Source of the DNA: Candidatus Uhrbacteria bacterium | Lineage (GTDB): Bacteria > Patescibacteriota > Patescibacteriia > 2-12-FULL-60-25 | NCBI GenBank assembly: GCA_903893445.1 | Contig: CAITMG010000030.1 | Location: 1 to 51,523 of the forward strand | Reading direction: 5' to 3' | DNA length: 51,523 nt | Part shown: positions 44,892 through 51,523 of the stretch, in pieces | Numbering within the stretch: position 1 is the stretch's first letter | Layout of the letters: every line of letters begins with the position of its first letter | Notes under the pieces: generated by a model | Seen by the model: only the letters and a program-made list of their open reading frames with translations | Told to the model about the DNA's origin: nothing | Database searches by the model: none | Translations under genes and position numbers: made by a program

Positions 44892-45707
44892 TCACCATTT
44901 TGCTTCCTGCATGTCTTTGGCGACAAACGTTTGACCAAAGTATCCTGCCGCGCGGACCTCGGACAGCATCACATCTGCGGAATCAAAATGAAAATAATGC
45001 GTGAGCCACAACTGTTTCACATTGGCATGCAATGCGAGCTCGCCGCACTGACGCGGGCCCATGTGTCCGTAGCCGCCGGTGTACTCTTGCCCAACGCGCG
45101 TACTGCAATCGGCGATCAATAAATCTGCGTCTTTTGCGAGGATACGTGCGCCTTCGCAGATCCCCGTGTCGCCCGTATATGCAACGATGCCGTATGGTGT
45201 TTCGATGCGAAAGCCCATGGCTGGATGACGACCAAAACCATGATAGACGTTAACAGCGGTCAGTTTGACGCCTGGCAAAATTTCTTCGACGTAGCCATCG
45301 TCCATCCCGACGATATCTGGTGCAAACTCGTTCCAATATCCCCCATCGTTCTCGGGTTGATGCCAGTTCCACACTTGCGGAAAATCTCGCGCTAACACCT
45401 TTGGCAAATACACGCGCAGCTTTCCCGAGCTCAGATCTTTGGAATCAAATAAATGCCGACAAAATTTGGATTGAATGAATTGTGGGAGCGCCGCGTGATC
45501 TGGATGCGAGTGACTCACCGCAACATGTGACACCGAGGCGATATCAATCCCAGCGGCAACCAGACGAAAACGAATCCCCTCACTGCAATCAAGCAACACG
45601 TGCTGACCATCAACTTCAATTAAAAAACCCGGCGGCTGCCGTAACGTTCCAACTTGCGTTGTTGAAAGGCACACACCGGTGCCAAGAGCGAGAACACACA
45701 ATCCCAT
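44892..45707 (-). CDS. MBL-fold metallo-hydrolase
   Basis: HxHxDH motif ..VSHSHPDHAA.. 271 aa. Confidence 0.88.
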   Translation of the reverse strand: MGLCVLALGTGVCLSTTQVGTLRQPPGFLIEVDGQHVLLDCSEGIRFRLVAAGIDIASVSHVAVSHSHPDHAALPQFIQSKFCRHLFDSKDLSSGKLRVYLPKVLARDFPQVWNWHQPENDGGYWNEFAPDIVGMDDGYVEEILPGVKLTAVNVYHGFGRHPAMGFRIETPYGIVAYTGDTGICEGARILAKDADLLIADCSTRVGQEYTGGYGHMGPRQCGELALHANVKQLWLTHYFHFDSADVMLSEVRAAGYFGQTFVAKDMQEAKW

Positions 45708-46795: not shown

Positions 46796-46888
46796 GGACG
46801 CTAAGCTCCACGATGTCGCTTTGCTCTTCGGGGCAGGCAGCTGGTTAGAGCGAGCCGATGGACATCGGCTAGGTCGCGGGCTCGATTC
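46796..46888 (+). pseudogene. Decayed tRNA-Val(GAC)-like sequence with D-loop insertion and no 3' acceptor strand
   Basis: ggacgctaagctc + a 30-nt insert (UUCG hairpin) + agctggttagagc + agccg-atGGACat-cggct + aggtcgcgggctcgattc. It parallels the neighbouring tRNA-Val but lacks the T-stem 3' strand and the acceptor 3' strand. Confidence 0.7.
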
Positions 46889-46905
46889 AATGCATCAACA
46901 ATCTT

Positions 46906-46982
46906 GGACGCTTAGCTCAGCTGGTTAGAGCGCCTCGTTTACACCGAGGAGGTCGCGGGTTCGATCCCCTCAGCGTCCACCA
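46906..46982 (+). tRNA. tRNA-Val (anticodon UAC), CCA encoded
   Basis: ggacgct/agcgtcc acceptor, gctc-agctggtta-gagc D arm, cctcg-ttTACac-cgagg anticodon arm and a gcgggttcgatcccctc T arm with one mismatch. Confidence 0.9.
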
Positions 46983-48029: not shown

Positions 48030-48045
48030 AACTCCCTCCGCCAGG

Positions 48046-48074
48046 ATATCAACGTGTTTTTATGAGATTGTCAA
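48046..48074 (-). promoter_or_regulatory. Promoter TTGACA-N17-TGATAT
   Basis: Read on the minus strand, about 17 nt upstream of the lipoprotein ATG region. Confidence 0.55.
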
Positions 48075-48089
48075 TCACCATTCCCAAAC

Positions 48090-48114
48090 AAAAAATCCCC
48101 GTTTGGGGATTTTT
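48090..48114. terminator. Bidirectional hairpin terminator
   Basis: aaaaa-atcccc-gttt-ggggat-tttt. Confidence 0.75.
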
Positions 48115-48116
48115 CG

Positions 48117-48148
48117 TGTGGTGCATCAGATGCTACAAAGCACGAACT
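48117..48148. repeat. 32-bp perfect direct repeat, left copy
   Basis: tgtggtgcatcagatgctacaaagcacgaact is identical to 51382-51413 and contains the small palindrome gcatc-a-gatgc. Confidence 0.9.
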
Positions 48149-48155
48149 CGTTCGG

Positions 48156-48368
48156 CTACCGCACCTGACGACAGTGATACCGATCTTTGATGAACTGTGC
48201 CAGATAGGATCCCTTCGAAGCTGCCGACATCATTGCGGCATAGACGCTGCTCGGGACCGCAAAGTACTGATAGATGGATCCACCGTGAAACTCGACCTCG
48301 AGGGTCGAGCTCAATGAATCGTAGCCGACGCTGGCGACGTTTGACGAGCTGACTCGCGTCCTATCCAT
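48156..48368 (-). CDS. KTSC domain-containing protein
   Basis: ..VSSSNVASVGYD..S.TLEVEF.GGSIYQY..VP..VY..M..A.SKG.Y....I.. is the typical KTSC pattern. 70 aa. Confidence 0.8.
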   Translation of the reverse strand: MDRTRVSSSNVASVGYDSLSSTLEVEFHGGSIYQYFAVPSSVYAAMMSAASKGSYLAQFIKDRYHCRQVR

Positions 48369-48448
48369 AGTCGCCCAACTCTACCATTCCCGTTGCTGCT
48401 TGCAAGACCCTATGAACCCGGACGTGCGGCAGGCGAGGACGGCACTTG

Positions 48449-50086
48449 TTAAGTTTCGATTGGCACGACCACGGATTCCTGACTCGGAGGACTACTCGAA
48501 GCCGCGGGCGGGCACCGCACAGAAGCGGCAAAACCAAGGATCGAGCTGACAGCGACACAAAGCGGAGTGACCACGACACCCTTTGATCTAAGCTTGTCGA
48601 GCACGTAGCCGATGAAGATCGCATTCTTGTCCAGGCCGCTCTCCTGGAGACCTTCCTCTGACCGCACCTCATTCTCCGTCTCTTTGTATGTGTTGCCAAC
48701 TGAACCGCGCACCGTGGCGCCGATGTTGTCCTTCCAGACAATCAAGTTCTGCGACACGTGCGTATCGACTGGGAAGCTCTGGCACGACGCTCCGCACAGC
48801 GAGATGATGGCATCGTTTTCGGGCTTGTGTTGGCCTCGCGCACTCGCTGCCTTATGTTCGACATCCGGCGTCGCTCCAGCAGGCGCGGAACAGAGGTTGC
48901 CGTCGGCGTCGAACAGAGTGAACACAGGAATGTCGAGACACTTCGCCACGGCCCTCAACTGAACGAGACGCGACTTCCCATCGGCAGGAACGATGTGACA
49001 GCCGAGGCGACGAAACTCCTCCTCCTTTCCATCCAAGACCATCTGAGAGGTGAGAAACGCCGCGTCCTCAAGACCCTCAACAAGCACCAAGATTGGCGTA
49101 AAGAACATCTCGCTCGCAGCGGGCTGGAGCAGCTGATGGAGTTTGGCCCGCGCGCCTTCTGCGTTCTTGGGTCCGCTCACGCCGACGCTCTTGAGTAACG
49201 TGGCTACATCGCCATGCGTCGCCGCCCGAATGTTCGAGGATGGGCCGTTGGCATCGCGCCTGACCACGCGAATATCCGGAAAACCGTTGCCCGACACGAA
49301 CAGTGGGCTATGGGAACAGACGAGAACCTGCGCGCCCGACCGCGCGAGCTCGCTCATGCAGGAAGCCATGTGTCGCGCCTGAGGCGGATGCTGGTACAGC
49401 TCGGGCTCCTCGCAAGCGAGAATCAACTTCGGCGCATCGTCCGCTCCAGTCGCAACAACTTCCTGAATGAGCGCGAGGAGGTAGGAGCGCTGAAATCCAT
49501 GCCCTTGACGCGCGAGCGATCCCTCAAAGGACGCATCGCCGGCAGCGACTGCCACGTATGGCTGTTTGACCGTGACAGGCGCCTTTGGATCTCCTTCCCA
49601 TCGCAGGCGCAGCAACGCATCCGGATGCGACCATCGCGCGAGCCTCTGGCTGAGCGAACTCGACAAATCCGTGAGAGATTGCTGGCGCTCCGCCAGAATC
49701 GCATCGTATCTTTCGGCGGCGTCGGTTTCCAGCGCCTTGATCGCGTCATCGAACTTGACCTTCGAACGCGCACGCGCGCAGCTATGAGGGCATCGTTCAG
49801 TCGCTTCGTTGCGTCCCCGCCCTCCATGGGCTCGGGCGGAGCGGTGCCATCGCCATCTTGCCGCCAGACGCCTCCAACCCGAACCGTCGAAGGGCCGAGT
49901 CCTGGCGGCGGCGGTGGCGGCGGGGGCAGCCTGCCCCCGGCGGCCGGCGGCGGCCACGACGACGGCGCGAAGTCCCCAGCGACGGGCGGCGGTGGTGGCG
50001 GCGGCGCGAAGTCCCCGAGCGCGACGAGAATTCGCTTGCCGGCGCCAAGCGTGCCGCGGAAGCGGAACTTCGCTCGGTCGAAACAC
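48449..50086 (-). pseudogene. OLD-family ATP-dependent endonuclease, 5'-truncated (signature, Walker B and Toprim retained; no Walker A)
   Basis: Carries RQGHGFQRSYLLAL, LILACEEPELYQHP, VLVCSHSP, LVLVEGLEDAAFL and TLFDADG. Recognisable similarity stops near 49765; upstream the frame reads Arg/Ala-rich junk through GC-rich DNA. Confidence 0.7.
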
Positions 50087-50679
50087 AGCTCGAGCGGTTG
50101 ACCGACCTGGTCGTCCAGGGCCACATCGACACTCCCGAATTCGAGCGACGAAAGGCGCGGCTCACTGCGCGCCGGCTCGAACTGAACGAAGAACTCGCAG
50201 ATCCGGCGAAGAGCATCGACGCGTGGCGTCGGAGGATCCAGGACGGCATCCGTCTCCTCACCGCGCTCTCGACGGCCTTCGCAGCAGCCTCCTTCGAGCG
50301 AGTGGTGAAATTCCTTCAGGCGAGAGGCGGTGTCGAGTTCCTCGAGCACATTGAAGTCTTGGAGCCGAATAGTTCGCAGCACGCATATCGCGGCACCATC
50401 CTTCCACCCGCGACCCTGCTGCAAGCGCGGAACGATCGGAAGATGGAATGGAAGCTCATGTGGACGGCCGGTATCGCCGGTCTTCTCCTCCTTCTTCTCA
50501 CGCTTCTCATGGCGATCATGACGCACTGGCTTGAATGGACGTTCGGCAAGTGGCTCCTGGGAGTGGTGGACCGACTCGGCACGGCAGCTCTCGCGACTGC
50601 CGGCGTATCTCTGGCCAACGTGTTGATCTACTACTTTGAGATCAAGCGTACGGCGGGCATCCGCTGGACTCTCGAATAA
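49858..50679 (+). CDS. Chimeric-looking ORF: Arg-rich N-terminus, recombinase-like coiled coil, two C-terminal TMs
   Basis: Strong G/C third-position bias in this frame. ..AEAELRSVETQLERLTDLVVQGHIDTPEFERRKARLTARRLELNEEL.. resembles the C-terminal coiled coil of large serine recombinases. An internal ATG at 50443 could give a 78-aa TM protein. Confidence 0.4.
   Translation: MPPDASNPNRRRAESWRRRWRRGQPAPGGRRRPRRRREVPSDGRRWWRRREVPERDENSLAGAKRAAEAELRSVETQLERLTDLVVQGHIDTPEFERRKARLTARRLELNEELADPAKSIDAWRRRIQDGIRLLTALSTAFAAASFERVVKFLQARGGVEFLEHIEVLEPNSSQHAYRGTILPPATLLQARNDRKMEWKLMWTAGIAGLLLLLLTLLMAIMTHWLEWTFGKWLLGVVDRLGTAALATAGVSLANVLIYYFEIKRTAGIRWTLE
49925..50030. repeat. Extremely G+C-rich low-complexity tract with a 39-nt periodic element
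   Basis: ggcgcgaagtcccc recurs at 49964 and 50003. The line 49921-49980 is 51/60 G+C. At least four of the six reading frames have a track ORF running open across it. Confidence 0.8.
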
Positions 50680-50680
50680 T

Positions 50681-50703
50681 AAAACGACGCCTACGAGGCG
50701 TCG
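50681..50703 (-). terminator. Hairpin shared by two convergent mini-ORFs
   Basis: cgacgcct-acg-aggcgtcg 8-bp stem with tttt on the minus strand. Confidence 0.5.
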
Positions 50704-50713
50704 CGTGGGAGGA

Positions 50714-50839
50714 TTACGAGAAAACCCATGTGACGAGCAATCCTGCGGTGGCCATGAACACGAGCACCGCAAAGAGCAGTCCGACGACGGCGACATGCGG
50801 ACGGTCGTTCCAAAGCCGATCAATCCAACGGATGGTCAT
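50714..50839 (-). CDS. Candidate 41-aa single-TM peptide (MTIRWIDRLWNDRPHVAVVGLLFAVLVFMATAGLLVTWVFS)
   Basis: Not in the track. GGAG lies 7 nt upstream of the ATG, there is one clean TM, and a hairpin with a T-run follows directly. Confidence 0.45.
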   Translation of the reverse strand: MTIRWIDRLWNDRPHVAVVGLLFAVLVFMATAGLLVTWVFS

Positions 50840-51076
50840 GCCGATGCTCCACGCCCGCCTGCTCGTCACTCCACAAAAATGGAAATAGCGAGCACGCAGG
50901 CCGGATAAGGGTCCTGCTGCCCGCCGCGCCAGAATTGGAGCGATCGGATCTACGACGCCTACAAGTAAGGGACTGGCCCGACGTTACCCCATGTGGGTAT
51001 CGCGTCAAGTGGAGCTGGGCATAATGAACCTAAGAATAGTGGAAGCGTTCTCCGTCGAAGTGCAGTGTGTGTAGAT

Positions 51077-51340
51077 ATGGAGACTCCACCACTCACACCA
51101 GACATGATTCGATCCTTCAGAGAGGCCTTTCAAGCGGACTTCGGTCGCGAGATCACGGTCGCAGAATCCGAGGAGATGGCGAGTCGGGTTCTACGCGTCA
51201 CGCTGCTCGTTGCTGACACTCTCGACCGGAAGAAGCATCTGAGCCAATCGCCGGCATCGACCAAGTTCGAGTCGCCCGTGGTGTCGGCCGAACTTCCACA
51301 CTCAAAGAACTCGCGCAACGAACAACTTCGCTTCATCTAG
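51077..51340 (+). CDS. Hypothetical 87-aa protein
   Basis: Trimmed to METPPLTPDMIRSF.. A terminator follows. No motif recognised. Confidence 0.5.
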   Translation: METPPLTPDMIRSFREAFQADFGREITVAESEEMASRVLRVTLLVADTLDRKKHLSQSPASTKFESPVVSAELPHSKNSRNEQLRFI

Positions 51341-51349
51341 CCCAATAAC

Positions 51350-51382
51350 AAAACGTACCCGTTGTGTAACGAGTACTCTTTT
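51350..51382. terminator. Hairpin terminator abutting the right direct repeat
   Basis: gtacccg-ttgtgtaa-cgagtac followed by tctttt. Confidence 0.6.
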
Positions 51383-51413
51383 GTGGTGCATCAGATGCTA
51401 CAAAGCACGAACT
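51382..51413. repeat. 32-bp perfect direct repeat, right copy
   Basis: Identical to 48117-48148 and likewise placed directly next to a terminator hairpin. Confidence 0.9.
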
Positions 51414-51523
51414 TTCGCGGGCACCCAGCAGCACGATCGATCACGAGATTCGCCAGTCGAACTCGCTGCATGATTGTGGACATCTCGACTGACCCACATG
51501 TTCAGCGGCAAACGAGACCGAAA

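Follow-up and report, generated by a model that had tools for sequence, protein, structure and literature searches.

Why should an identical 32-bp sequence stand twice, in the same orientation, on either side of G+C-rich DNA that carries the remains of a nuclease and of a recombinase? The question is raised by a stretch of 51,523 nt from a Candidatus Uhrbacteria bacterium (contig CAITMG010000030.1), the whole of which we call the window. The 32-mer, TGTGGTGCATCAGATGCTACAAAGCACGAACT, occurs exactly at 48117–48148 and 51382–51413, both times on the plus strand and nowhere else in the window, where a search at up to 3 mismatches returned no further copy and 100 shuffles gave an expectation of 0. 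The answer that we favor, and that we hold to be probable from sequence comparisons, is that the 32-mer—or the 30-nt unit within it, TGGTGCATCAGATGCTACAAAGCACGAACT, which begins at 48119 in copy 1—represents the crossover core (TGGTG/CAYCA) and the right attP-type half of an attachment (att) site of a large serine recombinase (LSR), repeated through tandem accretion of modules. The starting points of this interpretation can be read directly: the repeat copies, the layout of the modules, their homologous counterparts in intact elements, and the presence of a conserved site at the corresponding positions of other elements.

Copies and modules beyond the window edge

Exact-protein look-ups show the window to be the terminal part of a 56.9-kb contig. 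A longer scaffold of the same population (ERZ18661749 scaffold_487; loci L005, L009, and L098), 100% identical, extends past it. Positions in L009 are converted into window positions by adding 47417. Five copies of the repeat are found in L009, all direct and all at joints between gene modules, which makes at least five in all:

Copy 1: L009 start 700, 0 mismatches.
Copy 2: L009 start 3965, 0 mismatches.
Copy 3: L009 start 5746, 1 mismatch.
Copy 4: L009 start 12843, 1 mismatch.
Copy 5: L009 start 14567, 4 mismatches.

Identity among these copies runs from TGGTG to ...AACT, which delimits the 30-nt unit. Between them lie four modules (S1 to S4), the first of which is the cassette in the window:

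S1, copies 1–2, 3,265 bp: KTSC gene (minus), truncated OLD gene (minus), LSR fragment (plus), 87-aa gene (plus).
S2, copies 2–3, 1,781 bp: HTH_17 gene, 95-aa and 285-aa genes.
S3, copies 3–4, 7,097 bp: caspase and Hachiman-like helicase (minus), intact 517-aa LSR (plus), HEPN_Toprim_N (plus), 288-aa gene (minus), and a distinctive noncoding arm.
S4, copies 4–5, 1,724 bp: HTH_17 gene (76% identical to the first), 229-aa, 54-aa, and 87-aa genes, the last 43% identical to the 87-aa gene of the window.

The left flank of a copy is always a hairpin followed by a T-rich tail, the right flank is of one of three kinds, and the flanks are otherwise unrelated. The window hairpins, at 48084–48116 (AAAAAATCCCC-GTTT-GGGGATTTTT) and 51355–51376, have fold z scores of −3.6 and −2.3, respectively. 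G+C content is 0.425 in 48030–48116 and rises to 0.604 in 48149–51381, against 0.51 in the window up to 48116. The repeat itself contains the palindrome GCATC-A-GATGC and, in its 30-nt unit, the quasi-palindromic TGGTG/CATCA, and shows no significant fold when taken alone (z = −0.45). In these respects a preliminary description of this DNA was accurate: it had reported perfect 32-bp direct repeats at the same two positions, a terminator hairpin beside each, G+C-richer DNA between them, and an internal palindrome. It had also placed a minus-strand frame running off the right edge of the window, which is really a 49-codon open stretch with its stop inside the repeat; the gene called there in longer contigs is a plus-strand HTH_17 gene starting at 51498.

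Two of the junctions resemble that of copy 2. First, copies 2 and 5 have in common a homologous junction of 291 nt (83% identity), which runs from the last part of the 87-aa gene through the hairpin and the site into the region upstream of HTH_17. Second, copies 2 and 4, together with their right flanks, are identical for 142 nt from the second base of copy 2 (51383 onward) and 90% identical over 387 nt. Because this 142-nt repeat is longer than k = 141, MEGAHIT contigs and the window itself end 141 nt after copy 2, at 51523. We considered these contig ends as possible excision variants and rejected the idea, as the exact repeat of copies 2 and 4 accounts for them. The module to the right of copy 2 also appears in another assembly (ERZ18662244 scaffold_31365; L107 832–1363), which matches at 100% over the 87-aa gene, copy 2, and HTH_17 and diverges right after the HTH_17 stop into a G+C-rich amino-acid-kinase gene; this is either another context for the HTH_17 module or a scaffolding error.

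Related elements and the proposed att half-site

Our comparison set consisted of contigs that carry homologues of the intact 517-aa LSR of S3 (P0001), which has Resolvase (PF00239), Recombinase (PF07508), and Zn-ribbon (PF13408) domains and an N-terminal YARRST motif. S3 thus encodes an LSR complete in its catalytic, recombinase, and zinc-ribbon domains and its coiled coil; the window holds a coiled-coil fragment only. One relative, L096 (LSR 70% identical), holds an intact equivalent of the window cassette in other host surroundings. At its left end, host genes and a hairpin are followed by TGGTGCACCAGAGTGTATGAAGCACCAAC, which has 21 of 28 positions in common with the window unit; the stop of a KTSC gene is 8 nt away, against 7 nt at window copy 1. 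Then come, in order, the KTSC gene, a full-length 668-aa OLD, the LSR, a 301-aa gene, a 286-aa gene (56% identity with the 288-aa gene of S3), a homologue of the arm that precedes copy 4, and TGGTGC. What follows, at the contig end, reads by eye as a tRNA 3′ end in reverse complement, with the acceptor strand and the T-arm (AGACG/TTCGAAT/CGTCT).

Three other loci bear on the ends of the elements. In L094 (LSR 69% identical), the LSR stop is followed by the hairpin arm and then by TGGTG and a minus-strand tRNA-Lys called by ARAGORN. L101, from an unrelated sample (LSR 83% identical), carries AbiEii, the LSR, and a 451-aa gene on a k = 31 contig that opens exactly at TGGTGCACCAGAGTGCATAAAGACACAACT (the TGGTG of one site) and stops exactly after the arm and TGGTGCACCAGATGCTACGAAGCTCAAACT (...AACT), 25 of whose 30 positions agree with the window unit. 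Because k = 31 contigs break at repeated 30-mers, a 30-bp unit with the same limits is present in several copies in the L101 genome. In L097 (LSR 62% identical), the arm is followed by a half-site of the window 30-mer type. A noncoding arm of about 100 nt (ATTTACAAAGTGGTCTC...GTGACTGAAACATACGA-AAA-CCGAGG hairpin) is therefore common to five elements, whose LSRs are 62–83% identical to that of the island:

L009 12745–12842: conserved arm, ahead of copy 4.
L101 4385–4484: conserved arm, ahead of a window-type 30-mer.
L096 13118–13216: conserved arm, ahead of a tRNA-like end.
L094 11478–11577: conserved arm, ahead of TGGTG and tRNA-Lys.
L097 7758–7857: conserved arm, ahead of a window-type 30-mer.

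Conservation thus extends to the five island copies, to related 28- to 30-mers at the same ends of L096 and L101, and to a partner arm in five loci. Within the arm are also a TTTACA resembling a −35 element, two boxes (GTGGTCTC and GTGACTGAAACATACGA), and a hairpin in which CCGAGG and CCTCGG covary; the arm matches no Rfam family, and it could hold accessory binding sites or a promoter reading across the joint.

Under the reading that we favor, the conserved arm would be the left half of the att site. The joint at which the arm meets a tRNA 3′ end would be attR, that at which a host hairpin meets the 30-mer (window copy 1 and the left end of L096) would be attL, and that at which an element arm meets the 30-mer (copies 2–5, L101, and L097) would be an attP-like joint of neighboring modules. 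The modules stand in a head-to-tail stack in which each opens with the 30-bp unit and closes with its own hairpin-bearing arm, and circular modules were probably inserted repeatedly by the LSR into a site already holding an attP-type right half, as in the composite islands of staphylococcal cassette chromosome (SCC) elements. We infer that the LSR acts on these sites, where within them the crossover falls, and in which order the modules were inserted. Regarding the crossover, the core in L096 and L101 (TGGTG/CACCA) reads as a perfect palindrome of 10 bp, in which the window version has one mismatch. Regarding the half-sites, CGAAC/xAAC, a short motif, lies at +25–29 in those of the 30-mer type and the T-loop CGAAC at +20–24 in the tRNA targets. 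According to what Rutherford et al. reportedly described in 2013, a 5-bp offset of this kind separates attP from attB half-sites of LSRs; with so short a motif and no clear dyad symmetry in the outer arms, the offset seen here is no more than suggestive.

Several points weigh against this reading. Beyond the 10 bp of the core, the arms show no more dyad symmetry than expected by chance (6–11 of 26 positions match). No excised circle, empty site, or alternative junction was seen in the assembled contigs. A k = 141 contig of 9,018 nt (L010, equal to L009 3967–12984) has a 141-nt terminal overlap and would pass as an 8,877-bp circle carrying HTH_17, caspase-helicase, LSR, and HEPN-Toprim genes, but the chromosomal 142-nt exact repeat explains the loop equally well. 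Canonical LSRs recombine attP with attB only, and a stack sharing one right half-site requires noncanonical events of the attP × attL-like or attP × attP-like type. Four perfectly identical copies with unrelated flanks are unexplained by conservative recombination and need strong selection or a recent common origin. The tRNA at the end of L096 was read by eye only, and the 45-nt stub gave no Rfam match. Finally, neither native DNA nor a tRNA nor a further copy of the site is reached within 36 kb past copy 1, which leaves the attR or tRNA at the far end of the island unseen. Elsewhere, searches with the exact 32-mer returned 0 matches in JGI metagenomes, GTDB species genomes, and IMG/VR, as did searches of JGI metagenomes and IMG/VR with a degenerate site pattern.

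More distant homologues (33% identical) lie, in two Patescibacteria metagenome-assembled genomes (MAGs), about 0.45 kb past the 3′ end of a tRNA-Gln and on the opposite strand, which suggests that targeting of tRNA ends by LSR elements is common in Patescibacteria:

L089 5446–6954: distant LSR homologue by tRNA-Gln.
L024 6817–8337: distant LSR homologue by tRNA-Gln.

The relatives also differ in what adjoins the recombinase. In L101, L096, and S3, the LSR has one different defense gene beside it, transcribed away from the LSR gene: AbiEii in L101, OLD with KTSC in L096, and a caspase fused to a Hachiman-like helicase in S3. L102 holds a further candidate defense gene, Abi_C, about 2 kb downstream of its LSR. 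PADLOC has no model of KTSC, whose repeated occurrence next to OLD may represent a two-gene system not yet described.

Other explanations of the repeat

An extension of the LSR reading is that the array is active, i.e., that a single resident LSR excises, shuffles, and reinserts single-defense-gene modules—including those without a recombinase, such as S1 and the small HTH_17/87-aa modules—at identical 30-bp half-sites. This is possible, although we find it doubtful. If true, it would mean integron-like swapping of defense genes from G+C-rich donors in an ultra-small Patescibacteria genome, and the interest of the array would be higher. Loss of S1 would be expected to leave the joint ...GGGGATTTTTCGTG/TGGTGCATCAGATGCTACAAAGCACGAACT/TTCGCGGGCACCC and its circle to contain ...GAGTACTCTTTTG/TGGTGC...GAACT/CGTTCGGCTACCG.

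An unlikely alternative to att sites of any kind is that the 32-mer is a regulatory or transcript-end module—an HTH_17 operator or a hairpin-plus-box terminator unit—spread by duplication or gene conversion. It would explain why a terminator-like hairpin stands beside every copy, why copies 2, 4, and 5 are 85 nt upstream of HTH_17 genes or an HTH_17 remnant, and why the repeat contains a perfect 5-1-5 palindrome of the type used by dimeric DNA-binding proteins. However, copies 1 and 3 have no plus-strand gene downstream and copies 2, 4, and 5 no minus-strand gene upstream, which does not suit an operator or a terminator common to all. The unit also stands at the ends of L101 and L096 without an HTH_17 gene, and the conserved left arm runs into a tRNA 3′ end in L094 and L096, as at an integration junction. 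A related suggestion in the preliminary description, that of a duplicated 3′ untranslated region, is not supported: a position just after the stop of a minus-strand gene is found for copies 1 and 3 and not for copies 2, 4, and 5.

That the sites are substrates of a tyrosine recombinase, with the LSR as incidental cargo, strikes us as very unlikely, whether the enzyme be host XerC/D—in an array at a dif-like site like those of integrative mobile elements exploiting Xer (IMEX)—or an integrase encoded elsewhere. The site begins with GGTGC, as does dif of Escherichia coli, and its length of about 30 bp, direct orientation, and tandem modules resemble what we take to be the arrangement of IMEX arrays and pdif modules. 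Yet no tyrosine-recombinase domain was found among the genes called in about 36 kb of the island, and the site, as read by eye, does not have the layout of the dif consensus (two 11-bp arms with palindromic inner ends and a 6-bp spacer). Moreover, in five unrelated contigs, LSR homologues are accompanied by the site and its partner arm, which diverge along with them.

The preliminary description had put forward, as one possibility, that the two copies are attL and attR of one 3.3-kb element integrated near a tRNA-Val. Its notion of att-type sites at the borders of foreign, G+C-rich DNA survives, that of a simple pair gives way to at least five copies, and the single-element model as a whole is highly improbable. 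The repeat is indeed perfect and direct, and copy 1 does lie at a composition boundary, but three more copies stand outside the window, more than 30 kb of DNA to the right of copy 2 is still foreign (55–69% G+C), a duplicate of the right flank of copy 2 stands at copy 4, and the cassette has no functional recombinase. An integrase was expected beyond the right edge; there is one, a serine recombinase 5.4 kb on and in a different module. Nor does the tRNA-Val mark the hotspot: it is on the plus strand, 1.1 kb away, with two genes of 50% G+C in between, and the orientation of the site would put any target tRNA at the far, unseen end of the island.

We also considered and rejected a tRNA origin of the 32-mer, which has no T-arm when read against tRNA 3′ ends. 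ARAGORN and Rfam found no tRNA or tRNA fragment at any copy, and Rfam returned no family in the region or in the related loci.

Finally, that the 50%/60%-G+C junction at copy 1 is a chimeric join seeded by the 32-mer can be dismissed, since, for all the abruptness of the composition change exactly at the repeat and the breaking of k = 31 Logan contigs there, k = 141 MEGAHIT and other assemblies from several samples cross copy 1 and both its flanks at 100% identity, and a 32-bp repeat cannot mislead a k = 141 assembly graph.

The window cassette, known systems, and the island

The contents that the preliminary description had listed for the cassette—a KTSC gene, a 5′-truncated OLD nuclease, a G+C-rich tract, a coiled-coil piece of a recombinase, and an 87-aa open reading frame (ORF)—are borne out by profiles and alignments. 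Together with the sites and hairpins, the features are as follows:

48084–48116, no strand: A+T-rich terminator-like hairpin, left (host-side) arm of copy 1, on the 50%-G+C side; the composition boundary of the island is here.
48117–48148, plus: site copy 1, proposed core TGGTG/CATCA and right half-site.
48156–48368, minus: KTSC-domain gene, 70 aa (PF13619, E = 5e-25), its stop 7 nt from copy 1.
48449–49726, minus: remnant of an OLD-family nuclease, with the end of the ATPase domain and TOPRIM kept.
49904–50021, no strand: G+C-rich low-complexity tandem tract between the two truncated genes.
50023–50256, plus: LSR fragment of about 80 residues, coiled coil only, 35% identical to residues 369–450 of the intact LSR P0001.
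51077–51340, plus: 87-aa ORF with a 43%-identical paralogue at the same position ahead of copy 5.
51355–51376, no strand: terminator-like hairpin, left arm of copy 2; the arm of copy 5 is near-identical, and that of copy 3 has the last 11 nt in common.
51382–51413, plus: site copy 2; 142-nt identity with the copy 4 region from 51383.
51498–51523, plus: beginning of the gene that opens the next module and runs out of the window; its product is an HTH_17 (excisionase-type DNA-binding) protein, and the complete gene in L005 matches PF12728 with E = 4e-16.

By comparison with relatives, the cassette appears to be a decayed version of an intact KTSC-OLD-LSR element such as L096, in agreement with the earlier view of its cargo as a decaying defense or mobile cassette. 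The KTSC protein is 72% identical to that at the same position of L096. A complete OLD protein has an N-terminal ABC ATPase with Walker A and a C-terminal TOPRIM, and what is left here is a truncated remnant: it covers positions 252–374 of 374 of the AAA_15 profile plus TOPRIM, matches the PADLOC Old profile at 187–454 of 578, and aligns with residues 301–608 of the 668-aa OLD of L096, so that about 190–300 N-terminal residues are missing, the start of the ATPase included. The LSR fragment sits within a called ORF (50098–50679) with a hydrophobic C terminus. The G+C-rich tract at 49904–50021 is probably a deletion or rearrangement scar, and on our reading an internal deletion removed the N terminus of OLD, the divergent promoter region, and the catalytic domain of the LSR. 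S1 would thus be the outermost module of the stack and recombinase-dead. With a site still present at each of its ends, it could in principle be moved by the intact LSR two modules away. Its right end resembles the ends of the small HTH_17/87-aa modules.

Among known systems, the closest in operation seem to be SCC/SCCmec and the Enterococcus cassette chromosome (ECC, with CcrAB), which are likewise LSR-mobilized, have direct repeats that hold the integration-site sequence, and carry variable cargo; in SCC, as here, several repeat copies delimit stacked elements. Pseudo-SCC units have no recombinase genes and are thought to rely on a neighbor's enzyme. The target differs, however, being rlmH in SCC and a tRNA 3′ end in the relatives described here, and so do the enzyme (one LSR gene vs. 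a ccrA/ccrB pair), the repeat (unrelated to the SCC core TATCATAA), the host (a Patescibacteria bacterium), and the cargo (phage-defense genes). SCC elements are defined by the 3′ end of rlmH/orfX and by ccrAB or ccrC; the array is flanked by an M23 peptidase and a 121-aa gene, no rlmH was seen, and there is a single LSR, which makes the array, by analogy, something that works like an SCC composite island rather than a member of that class. Multiplicity of repeats has a parallel in the ECC elements moved by LSRs, which have att direct repeats of about 50 bp at their flanks, with multiple copies of attR in 16 of 32 (PMC6222049).

In tycheposons, a minority of which use LSRs, successive integrations push older, decaying elements deeper into the island (10.1101/2020.12.28.424599). 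The array resembles them in its successive integrations at one site, the fragmentation of older elements, and cargo modules without an integrase. However, its repeats are not partial tRNAs and its recombinase is an LSR rather than, as mostly in tycheposons, a tyrosine recombinase. Full and partial copies of a target tRNA, as found in tycheposons, are present at no copy of the site, although L094 and, by eye, L096 abut tRNA 3′ ends, and no replication module of the tycheposon type (primase or helicase) was identified in the island.

The LSRs of the clostridial elements Tn4451 (TnpX) and Tn5397 (TndX) insert into targets that are like the joint of their own circular form. Such relaxed attP-like targeting is the kind needed to build the array. 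Both elements are single units with short GA-centered ends, and to our knowledge tandem arrays with identical 30-bp half-sites have not been described for either. With integron arrays, the likeness lies in a row of accessory-gene modules separated by a recurring recombination site; unlike integrons, the array has no IntI, attI, or Pc promoter, its site is not an imperfect palindrome of the attC type, and its modules are multigene and of mixed orientation. No called gene matches a tyrosine-recombinase Pfam family and the 32-mer has no significant fold.

If our reading is right, these loci would define a compact family of serine-recombinase elements of 4.5–7 kb with a recognizable att site and a conserved arm, each carrying one defense system (OLD-KTSC, AbiEii, or caspase-helicase), with a more distant relative near an Abi_C gene. 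It would also mean that LSR elements can pile up and decay within a reduced Patescibacteria genome. One search of a limited literature collection for serine-recombinase integrative elements in Patescibacteria, a phylum whose mobile elements seem to have been little reported, returned nothing. As a pair, the sequences of site and arm offer candidate attP/attB substrates for testing a new serine integrase. No new principle is involved, since both the accretion of elements in tandem with att repeats and the decay of the inner ones are well documented: the array represents a new family within a familiar kind of element, and its host is unusual.

The island as a whole extends further. G+C-rich DNA (55–69%) starts at copy 1 and continues for at least 36 kb, which is large for so small a Patescibacteria genome, and the array is its first 14 kb. 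Past the array come another HTH_17 gene and three features that we observed in L098, L099, and L108 (roughly 62,000–84,000 in window-equivalent positions): a gene for an NB-ARC/TPR protein, a gene cluster of the metallophosphatase-AIRS-kinase-like type, and an RHS/YD-shell toxin of 1,679 aa with small ORFs downstream of it. On the 50%-G+C side, an M23 peptidase and the 121-aa gene flank the island, and the host is a Patescibacteria bacterium: the closest relatives of the peptidase in the GTDB species set are proteins of Uhrbacteria and Moraniibacteriota MAGs (62–64% identical). Looking for an empty site through these relatives yielded none, as gene order is not conserved and neither the 121-aa gene nor the island genes, except the LSR, are nearby.

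Two further observations concern the host side of the window. Directly upstream of the tRNA-Val (46906–46982), a tRNA-like partial duplicate occupies 46828–46900 and agrees with it at 15 of 15 nt (CAGCTGGTTAGAGCG) and 20 of 25 nt, with a spacing of 79–80 nt; we rejected this repeat as an att scar, as it is not called by ARAGORN or Rfam and is unrelated to the 32-mer. At 44892–45707 on the minus strand, a chromosomal gene of the metallo-β-lactamase fold has a precomputed match to the anti-Pycsar protein Apyc1 (PF23023), and its product is probably a housekeeping hydrolase of that fold.

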